Source: Candidatus Yonathbacteria bacterium RIFCSPLOWO2_01_FULL_43_27 (GTDB taxonomy: Bacteria > Patescibacteriota > Minisyncoccia > Phycocordibacterales > UBA1550). Taken from it: DNA of 64,000 nucleotides. Both the position numbers and the translations under genes were made by a program. Shown piece after piece: positions 28,834 through 61,568 of this stretch (positions within the stretch are counted from its first letter, which is position 1; every line of letters begins with the position of its first letter). Under the pieces are notes generated by a model. The model searched no databases. It saw only the letters and a program-made list of their open reading frames with translations, and was not told where the DNA came from. The stretch covers positions 6,718 through 70,717 of the forward strand of contig MHUV01000003.1 in assembly GCA_001823545.1 (NCBI GenBank), written 5' to 3'.

Positions 28834-29120
28834 AAGCGGTATTTACCCCGAGGCAAAGCCCCGGTCAAAATGTGTTCGCTTCGCTCACCAATTTACCGCC
28901 CCAGAGGGGCAGGGTATTCAACCCTTGTATTATTCCATTACATGGACGGTACACCTTTTGGATTTTCTTTTCGTGATTACACGCAATAAAATCTCAAAAG
29001 GTCTTGCGAAGCTCCATGTATTCGCTTCTCACCTCGGCTCCCTGGCCGACTGCTGTCAGCGGGTTAGGCGGAAATGAGAAAGATTACTTTCTCATTTCAC
29101 TCGCTCTACGTCGCTAATAG
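28831..29120 (+). mobile_element. Longest copy of modular MITE-like repeat family
   Basis: Fills the whole gap between convergent stops; ends TAAAAGCGGTA and GTCGCTAATAG; modules shared with 2719, 8009, 10251, 51796, 58152. Confidence 0.75.
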
Positions 29121-60518: not shown

Positions 60519-60591
60519 TCCGTGATAGCTCAGTCGGTAGAGCGCCTCGCTGTTAACGAGGATGTCCCAGGTTCGAGCCCTGGTCACGGAG
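60519..60591 (+). tRNA. trnN: tRNA-Asn(GTT), CCA end not encoded
   Basis: TCCGTGA/TCACGGA acceptor, CCTCG-CTGTTAA-CGAGG anticodon arm, CCAGG-TTCGAGC-CCTGG T arm. Confidence 0.97.
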
Positions 60592-60644
60592 CAAAAACAG
60601 TTATGCCCCCGATATGAAAATATCGGGGGTTTACTGTTTTCTCA

Positions 60645-60925
60645 CGTGACCAGGGCTCGAAAGACGGAGGTCGCGAAGCCGATTTGAGCAAAGCGAAAAT
60701 CGTAGACCGAGTCGGGGTCGAGAGTACTTATGAGCAAAGCGAATTAGTAACTCGTGACCGCGCCCTGGTCGGCAAGCATTGATTAAGGGCTCGAACGCCG
60801 GAGCTATACCGAGCGAGCTACTCCGTGCGTCCGCACGGACGCTCTAGGAGCACAAAAGGTAGCGAGGCGGTGCCCAGACCGAGGCGAGTGACGACGAGCT
60901 GAGAGTCGAGGGAGAGATCCCTGGT
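60645..60925 (+). repeat. Two tandem structured units bounded by tRNA-Asn-derived termini
   Basis: CGTGACCAGGGCTCGAA (60645-60661)...GCCCTGGTC (60762-60770); AGGGCTCGAA (60786-60795)...CCCTGGT (60919-60925). Confidence 0.8.
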
Positions 60926-60934
60926 TGTGTGGTT

Positions 60935-60972
60935 AGCAAAAAACACCCATACGAATATGGGTGTTTTTTGCT
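60935..60972. terminator. Bidirectional terminator
   Basis: AGCAAAAAACACCCATA-CGAA-TATGGGTGTTTTTTGCT. Confidence 0.82.
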
Positions 60973-60995
60973 ACCTTGAATAAGATTCAAACCTA

Positions 60996-61030: not shown

Positions 61031-61086
61031 ATCACTACGAAAGAGACCCTGATGTAGATACGTCTACATTGGGGGCTTTTTCTTTT
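61031..61086 (+). ncRNA. Putative small hairpin RNA antisense to the NYN gene 3' end
   Basis: 20-position stem 61039-61082 with three G-U wobbles, one mismatch and a UACG loop, then a U-run; promoter directly upstream. Confidence 0.55.
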
Positions 61087-61568
61087 AATCTCACGGTAGA
61101 AAATTTATGATAATGTTCGTTCAAAAACGTTATTTCAATATTTTTATTTTTTAACAAAATAGAGCACTTCTTTTCGTCGGGAGCTACGACACGATTAATT
61201 ACTTTGTTGTCTTGCAAAAACTGTACCAAACACCCAAAATCACCATCACCTGTTACTAAGATACAAGAAGTAAATGCTTTCATATAAAAATCGGAAACTG
61301 TCTTGAGCACCAATTCCGCGTCACAATTACCTTTAACCGTTCCTTCAAATGAAACTGTTTGTTTAAAAACAAGAATAAAACCACACTCCTGAAGATACTC
61401 GTAAAAGGATGTCCTGCTTGGAACAAGGCCAATAAAAAGATAGACGTTCGCTGGATTATATTTTTGACGAAGCCATCCGCGAAACTTTTTATAGTCTATT
61501 TCAAAACTAAGCTCTTTTGCTGAGCGATAGAGATTATTTCCATCAATATAAATATTGATTTTATTCAT
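61035..61568 (-). CDS. NYN/LabA-DUF88 (PIN-like) ribonuclease domain protein
   Basis: YIDGNNL, KGNCDAEL, LVTGDGDF, CSILLK. Confidence 0.9.
   Translation of the reverse strand: MNKINIYIDGNNLYRSAKELSFEIDYKKFRGWLRQKYNPANVYLFIGLVPSRTSFYEYLQECGFILVFKQTVSFEGTVKGNCDAELVLKTVSDFYMKAFTSCILVTGDGDFGCLVQFLQDNKVINRVVAPDEKKCSILLKNKNIEITFLNEHYHKFSTVRLKEKAPNVDVSTSGSLS

Follow-up and report, generated by a model that had tools for sequence, protein, structure and literature searches.

An apparently undescribed, widespread mobile DNA element with antisense arms that match the gene ends behind which it lies

Islands and prophages of tRNA and tmRNA genes insert in the T-loop or at the acceptor end (their sublocations), restore the gene and displace its old end. 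The RtT repeats of E. coli tyrT lie in tandem behind a tRNA gene, and each unit finishes with a copy of the gene's 3' end; to our knowledge they have no antisense arm and occupy a single locus. The insertion sequences IS608 and ISDra2 carry strand-specific hairpins, and a guide 5' of the hairpin foot pairs with the cut site; C is preferred at +1, and a change of guide retargets the element (PMC5934647, PMC6006769, PMC8266576). Elements of the IS608 type favour the lagging-strand template (PMC6006769), and in one study an extended pairing 5' of the site was engineered into IS608, the authors arguing that natural IS608 avoids it (PMC5934647). The genome of CTX phage provides a folded single-stranded attP, at which exchange of one strand is completed by replication (PMC4246890).

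Each known element class that we considered has at least one tested defining feature that the family of repeats described here lacks. As in the IS200/IS605 group, subterminal hairpins are predicted on one strand, and a putative guide 5' of a hairpin foot is complementary, by sequence, to the cut site. That group inserts without target duplication, whereas here the gene end is present twice, 20–100 nt of it being duplicated; the arm pairs over 9–21 nt, mostly 3' of the cut, the element contains no tnpA, and there is no bias towards the lagging strand (15/25 versus 8/14 for the two replication strands of one genome, with GC skew as proxy). REP, BIME and REPIN-RAYT systems share with the family short, structured non-coding repeats with bulges, arrays and, putatively, mobilisation in trans, but paired inverted REP units are absent, the arms are target-specific and the core asymmetric, no GTAG/CGTC foot was seen, the elements do not flank the Y1 genes inspected, and their sites are fixed inside gene ends. 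An attachment site made by fold-back of inverted arms, here a predicted fold, recalls CTX phage and other integrative elements exploiting Xer (IMEX) and the attC sites of integrons; the targets, however, are ends of tRNA, tmRNA, topA, rpsI, rplL and nrdB genes rather than dif or attI, the arm differs from target to target, and no recombinase boxes were seen. The family resembles tRNA-integrating islands in that the gene is restored and a displaced direct copy left behind, and differs from them in its size of about 150–300 nt, its inverted arm, the absence of integrase and cargo, and the use of a single core family at 36 tRNA types as well as at protein genes. It differs from RtT repeats also in having no Rfam match. 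A search of titles and abstract openings found no description of the family, which is a real and widespread mobile DNA element and apparently an undescribed one.

The tRNA-Asn locus and its folded core

The window, the whole stretch of 64,000 nt that was analysed, is part of a 741-kb genome that is 99.6% complete. The array behind its tRNA-Asn gene is made up of the following parts.

60519..60592, + strand: tRNA-Asn(GTT) gene; CCA not encoded; the part from C56 onward putatively element-borne
60570..60574, + strand: target site GGTT^C in the T-loop, which fits the family consensus G-N-N^C
between 60573 and 60574, + strand: putative left junction, placed by the junction rule of the family
60574..60758, + strand: unit 1, the putative mobile unit of 185 nt, which starts at C56 and ends in GTGAC
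60594..60640, + strand: left hairpin, terminator-like (stem 60605-60630 plus a T-rich tail)
60645..60661, + strand: antisense arm of unit 1, exact complement of tRNA positions 54-70
60662..60758, + strand: core 1, with hairpins P1 (AGACGGAG...GAGTCG) and P2 (GGGGTCG...AGTAACTCGTGAC)
60759..60770, + strand: displaced sense copy from C56 (11/12 identical), also the truncated start of unit 2
60771..60785, + strand: remnant 3' half of a hairpin whose intact version stands ahead of the same arm in locus L005
about 60786..60796, + strand: antisense arm of unit 2
60796..60915, + strand: core 2, with the second end type (GGTGCCCAGACC...GTCGAGGGA), joining at G57
60916..60925, + strand: oldest displaced tRNA end, from G57, with the T-loop variant GAT
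60934..60973, no strand assigned: perfect 18-bp palindrome with A/T flanks, absent in a close strain and probably the native terminator

The initial annotation of this locus had described the arm at 60645–60661 as a perfect 17-nt reverse complement of tRNA-Asn 60572–60588, separated by a palindromic trailer from a tRNA that lacks an encoded CCA, and all three observations are confirmed: the gene ends in G73-C74 and is followed by a run of A, so CCA is not encoded, and the trailer palindrome pairs 60594–60609 with 60625–60640 and 60606–60615 with 60620–60629. The single long hairpin that had been proposed for the tRNA 3' arm and trailer is likewise the predicted fold of 60519–60665 (−80.7 kcal/mol, z −10.2, with 0/200 shuffles as good). 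The unit 1 arm ends two bases beyond the junction, with A60644 bulged, and the left hairpin is probably part of the element, because similar hairpins precede the arms at other tRNA genes (loci L012, L024 and L034). The second unit, repeating the layout of the first, also proved real. The annotation had moreover seen a unit of ~125 nt closed by a sense copy, and while the copy exists, the boundaries are offset, the ‘closing’ copy being, as we infer, a displaced earlier gene end and the mobile unit running from 60574 to 60758. The end types differ in where they join, unit 1 at C56, unit 2 at G57 and a third type at position 60. The inner hairpin of core 2 (60814–60855) is a module common to a non-tRNA repeat family.

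Just behind the array lies an NYN-domain gene (window 61035–61568, − strand), and an NYN-like ORF is found behind tRNA-Trp in locus L039; the hairpin at 61039–61082 is a repeat common to many contigs, with a summed depth of about 300. A second repeat family, with 18 copies at gene ends (e.g. window 28841–29115), starts with ATTAGCGAC and contains hairpin modules that also occur in unit 2 and in other cores.

Core 1 has covarying stems and variable loops. In an alignment of 73 sequences (72 of the 78 assigned loci plus the window, six badly anchored or over-long loci being left out), eight of the nine pairs that are not fixed by the search pattern change on both sides, giving 181 two-sided cells where shuffles give 52; the 12 P2 pairs that the pattern does fix lie outside this evidence. 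The last two bases of the core are AC, and an A nine bases before its end is bulged; conserved hairpins stand at fixed spacing on both sides of the arm. A search of Rfam with the window plus 10 loci returned tRNA alone at the gathering threshold, with weak miRNA-type matches far below the cut-off and no match for the core.

Judged by its loops, which are of the DNA type, the core looks like DNA and not RNA. C-GNA-G triloops number 64 on the top (element) strand and 4 on the bottom strand, compared to 17.7 in shuffles, while GNRA loops show no enrichment (21 against 26.6) and cUUCGg loops number 0. The GNA triloop is a DNA mini-hairpin motif that is stable in DNA, a related RNA hairpin being much weaker (PMC13037366). 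The genome contains 21 hairpins with a CTGC loop, of which 20 lie in these trailers (15 found by script and five by eye), several of them 21–23 nt ahead of the core start as judged by eye; control loops gave counts of 1 and 0. Folded locally as DNA, the cores by themselves do not stand out (z −0.9 to −2.6). Closed as a circle, 60574–60758 is predicted to form a dumbbell of −44.4 kcal/mol under DNA parameters (mononucleotide shuffles −16.1 ± 3.5), where the arm is paired to the carried end apart from two free bases. Tested for terminator-like character, 62/78 trailers scored in the forward but 56/78 in the reverse direction, so this measure discriminates weakly.

Distribution, cognate arms and the junction rule

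The same layout of gene end, hairpin, antisense arm, covarying core of ~100 nt and displaced second gene end recurs throughout this genome, where a core lies within 230 nt behind 24/39 tRNA genes; a script had flagged 25/39, and Thr(ggt) was left out since its core is that of its neighbour's element. The tmRNA gene has one element, and three orphans have arms that correspond to His, Ser and Arg tRNAs. No fewer than 121 GTDB loci contain the P2 motif of unit 1. Among the 121 matches listed, 98 lie less than 700 nt behind a tRNA or tmRNA gene on the same strand and 0 behind one on the opposite strand, the remaining 23 having no tRNA call (16 of these have short flanks). The 98 listed matches cover 36 tRNA types plus tmRNA. 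Nearly all GTDB records with the core motif bear Patescibacteria-type titles, the exceptions being titled ‘bacterium’ and, in one case, Patiriisocius.

A wider motif is present in 94/151 genomes of the order, the reversed control giving one match, so the family is abundant, and this in bacteria whose genomes are very small. Of 22 matches in 20 regions picked by hand, 19 of these regions being from other classes of the phylum, 16 lie behind a tRNA and restart at its C56, with shorter arms; the phylum-wide pattern is too loose for counts, many of its matches being due to chance. These sequences are kin, and shared ancestry inflates all counts of independent cases. Viral contigs yielded 0 real elements in 66 loci, five of which were let through by a loose filter but discarded on visual inspection, and a further viral scan found 0 among the 120 loci listed. 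A plain tRNA-Asn pattern matches in only 2/29 genomes of the family, with synteny broken; five other tRNA-Asn loci comprise one array of another core type, three without an element and one at a contig end. The tRNA-Asn gene may elsewhere in the family be interrupted, diverged or unassembled.

The arms match their own tRNA. Among 89 first elements, 54 fall in a T-loop register (arm end opposite T54) and 24 in acceptor registers (70 or 72), with 11 unassigned. Arms of the T-loop set complement the cognate tRNA at 301/324 bases over positions 59–64, while 5000 shufflings of the tRNAs gave a mean match of 55% and a maximum of 64%. Where the T-stem contains a non-Watson-Crick pair, the arm complements the 3' strand in 12/13 cases, and it is therefore an inverted copy rather than a second tRNA 5' half. 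A bulged base recurs in the arms.

For a target-blind view of the junction we took 245 cores, of which 155 have a unique 7-nt upstream inverted match and 90 were dropped. The targets read G-N-N^C, with G at −3 in 154/155 (70/70 outside the T-loop), a position outside the arm-paired region, and C at +1 in 145/155. The two bases between G and C vary, and in the acceptor registers the arm matches them in 22/24. Behind the core the copy restarts two nucleotides in from the arm end in 50/70 non-T-loop cases, compared to 0, 1, 2 and 5 cases at the other offsets. Junctions are often ragged at positions 59–62, and beyond position 60 the sense copy decays to an identity of 0.5–0.8.

Protein-gene targets and turnover between strains

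The initial annotation had considered an element that targets tRNA genes and takes its termini from its host. Targeting is borne out, yet it is not specific to tRNA, since ends of protein genes carry cores too. A second core family, from metagenomes, gave 114 matches: 62 at tRNA or tmRNA genes, 11 at topA, five at a T-loop motif and 36 at others, which makes topA the commonest protein target seen (11/114). The 36 others include ends of rpsI, rplL (twice) and nrdB, identified with Pfam, and two elements antisense at tRNA 5' ends. We examined 71 topA ends (70 of about 170 found, 40 of them hand-picked and enriched for one codon, plus L111), of which 19 were flagged and 18 proved real; all 18 elements lie at GGNA^CNAARAC. 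The topA gene of this genome has no element.

At these 18 loci the upstream gene end can be compared with the displaced one. Over eight codons they differ at 65 third, 11 first and five second positions, with 3.6 third-position differences per upstream/displaced pair compared to 4.9 between genomes. Neutral decay would spread changes evenly over the codon, so both copies must have been coding alleles. Over the first 10 codons 14/18 pairs differ and 4/18 are identical, the latter compatible with a donor of the same strain as well as with local copying; immediately behind the junction C, the base differs in 6/18. At sites where the copies differ, the arm follows the upstream copy in 19/22 (the false locus L257 left out; 21/24 with it). 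Because the ends differ mainly at third positions and the arm follows the upstream copy, the element likely swaps in a foreign gene end. The cognate match that had been claimed for the termini thus stands, whereas the topA comparison speaks, on sequence grounds, more for a gene end that is carried in than for copying at the site.

The last arm base matches the degenerate −2 base in 25/26 topA elements, against a background of C 36, A 15, T 10 and G 9; this could reflect co-inheritance if the left junction lay two bases further 5'. An A at −2 is seen in 0/26 element-bearing topA genes, in 15/70 topA ends and in 2/155 junctions overall.

The units also turn over. A contig of a close strain (depth 8, run X15) has 15 differences in 707 flanking bases (~97% identical) and keeps the tRNA end and unit 2, while 243 other bases replace window 60596–60773, nine bases stand in place of the unit 2 inner hairpin, and 60896–60993 is absent. 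The replacement of unit 1 fits the arrival of new units beside the gene. Comparison of cores from different targets gives a similarity of 0.93–0.94 within the genome, and of as much as 0.97 for a topA element against a T-loop element, and such near-identity indicates that cores also move between targets. In the assembled contigs neither a circle junction nor a clean pair of empty and filled alleles was seen.

Possible routes of integration

The reading that we prefer, with moderate confidence, is of a protein-less mobile DNA element that likely integrates as folded single-stranded DNA at G-N-N^C under guidance of its arm, its own gene end replacing that of the host. Such an element would carry the target gene's 3' end followed by a hairpin, by the same end in antisense and by the folded core. 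The unit from +1 (C56) to GTGAC would leave as a single-stranded circle, in which the arm would pair with the carried gene end and so make the attachment site double-stranded, leaving two arm bases to pair with target positions −2 and −1. A trans-acting enzyme, for which HUH/Y1-like chemistry is the best analogue, would exchange one strand 5' of the C, and replication would fix the product. The scheme combines the guide-paired cut site and +1 C of IS608 with the replication-completed folded attachment site of CTX phage. A single strand exchange of this kind at TT^C would yield exactly the observed order, with the host gene whole and its old end displaced downstream; repeated events would build arrays in which the newest unit adjoins the gene. 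Conserved gene ends would permit spread between species, cores would also be exchanged between loci, and the terminator-like hairpin that precedes the arm probably protects the tRNA. The circle leaves the first acquisition of arms for a new target unexplained, and the candidates searched included no enzyme for it.

The genome contains one TopA, as well as one tyrosine (Xer-type) recombinase and four Y1 genes whose flanks are unrelated to the element. The four Y1 genes have palindromes of their own that are different from the element, no element adjoins the Xer gene, and no copy with the element's ends was found at the four Y1 loci or at 30 others. The association of elements with Y1 is weak: a Y1 match is present in 65/94 element-bearing and 27/57 other genomes (odds ratio 2.5, p 0.01, the kin not being independent), and the rank correlation is 0.13 (p 0.11); 29/94 element-bearing genomes have no Y1 match, 12 of these having four or more elements. 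A motif scan of 752 ORFs gave no extra HUH candidates, and inspection by eye of 252 left ends found no coding element between the ends. The neighbourhoods likewise offer no recurring gene beyond locus-specific ones, so the transposase, reverse transcriptase or nuclease gene for which the initial annotation had proposed to look did not emerge as a shared neighbour. GIY-YIG matches occur in 151/151 genomes, longer GIY-YIG-domain proteins included, and since all genomes match, their profile is uninformative.

The Y1 genes (RAYT-like; C1:12985, C3:113696, C5:115661 and C6:84413) are each flanked by their own short palindrome. The one serine integrase lies in an island in tRNA-His (C1:123727–126371), and a His-armed element on another contig (C4:70740–70860) probably lies at the island's far end.

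Formation of the arms by breakage and capping, or by template switching, is the foremost alternative, though a rather unlikely one. A nuclease or recombinase would cut at G^NN^C to leave a two-base 3' overhang, the core would cap the downstream half as a hairpin linked to both of its strands, and fold-back replication at the left hairpin would produce the direct-inverted-direct pattern, with the arms made from the target at each event. This would explain why the two ends of the core are attached to one target strand, staggered by exactly two bases, and it accounts for cognate arms at any new target better than the circle does, as well as for the complements of wobble pairs (12/13), the raggedness of junctions and, within one genome, cores that are nearly identical but bear different arms. 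GIY-YIG nucleases and serine recombinases typically leave two-base 3' overhangs, and small GIY-YIG genes are common in the order. Such copying predicts identical ends, however, and 14/18 topA pairs differ, mostly at third positions, as does the base after the junction C in 6/18; the conserved hairpins at fixed spacing on both sides of the arm also speak against it, as does the lack of a core near 21/21 parseable GIY-YIG loci (30 fetched). Both routes could hold, capping founding a lineage and circles spreading it.

It is improbable that a host tyrosine recombinase or topoisomerase acts on a folded strand in the style of CTX phage or integrons, with the arm providing homology rather than a guide. 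The predicted dumbbell does resemble the folded attP of CTX phage (PMC4246890), and the recurrent bulged base of the arm, the presence of one Xer-type recombinase and one TopA, the persistence of elements in genomes without Y1 and the rank of topA among protein targets would all suit such an enzyme. There are, however, no dif-like inverted binding sites at the junction, where conservation is limited to G at −3 and C at +1, and no element lies beside the Xer gene; conserved genes other than topA are targeted as well.

The initial annotation had offered a second possibility, a strand-swap switch in which the arm pairs with the tRNA or with the downstream sense copy and so gates maturation of the CCA-less pre-tRNA, and this we consider very improbable. 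Both folds are possible as RNA, tRNA-trailer elements lie on the strand of the tRNA, and the core is structurally conserved. But the same cores, with the same junction rule, lie in protein-gene ends and antisense at tRNA 5' ends, the loops are of the DNA type, and arm mismatches show no preference for G-U (6/26). The misfold of arm with tRNA would moreover beat the cloverleaf by 24 kcal/mol, or 21 with the sense copy present, the sense copy itself decays, 15/39 tRNA genes have no element, and presence is patchy with turnover of units, the close strain having a different first unit. A self-splicing or reverse-transcribed RNA element, akin to a miniature group II intron or retro-element, is scarcely credible: the terminal AC and the bulged A nine bases from it are reminiscent of group II domain VI, but this 99.6% complete genome has no reverse transcriptase, no Rfam intron domain matches, the 5' end is target-derived and the loops are of the DNA type.

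Returning to the single-stranded circle, a bolder extension, which we advance tentatively, is that the family is a natural system of programmable DNA-guided integration, in which a scaffold of ~100 nt with an exchangeable guide of 9–21 nt would direct a Patescibacteria enzyme to any G-N-N^C and swap in the sequence it carries. If so, the element would spread between species by way of the ends of essential genes, rewriting them as it goes, and retargeting would require just a new arm. The arm, if a guide, would be a natural version of engineered IS608, and the element a candidate for a very small tool with which to insert sequence programmably or replace gene ends. In tRNA, topA, rpsI, rplL and nrdB genes of these bacteria the 3' end may be foreign, which would affect phylogeny, and the repeats break metagenome assemblies at tRNA genes. 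The G-N-N^C rule and the predicted 185-nt circle offer direct assays for finding the enzyme.

A small GIY-YIG ORF (C6:121706–122032, − strand) apparently sits between inverted repeats inside an RNase P RNA gene, a host gene that we take to be such by eye and from familiar motifs. Small GIY-YIG cassettes at L468 and L476 come with a second copy of the beginning (5') of tRNA-Gln and tRNA-Leu genes, and an ORF behind tRNA-Cys (C2, about 11900 and below, − strand) resembles, by eye, an HNH endonuclease of tRNA clusters.
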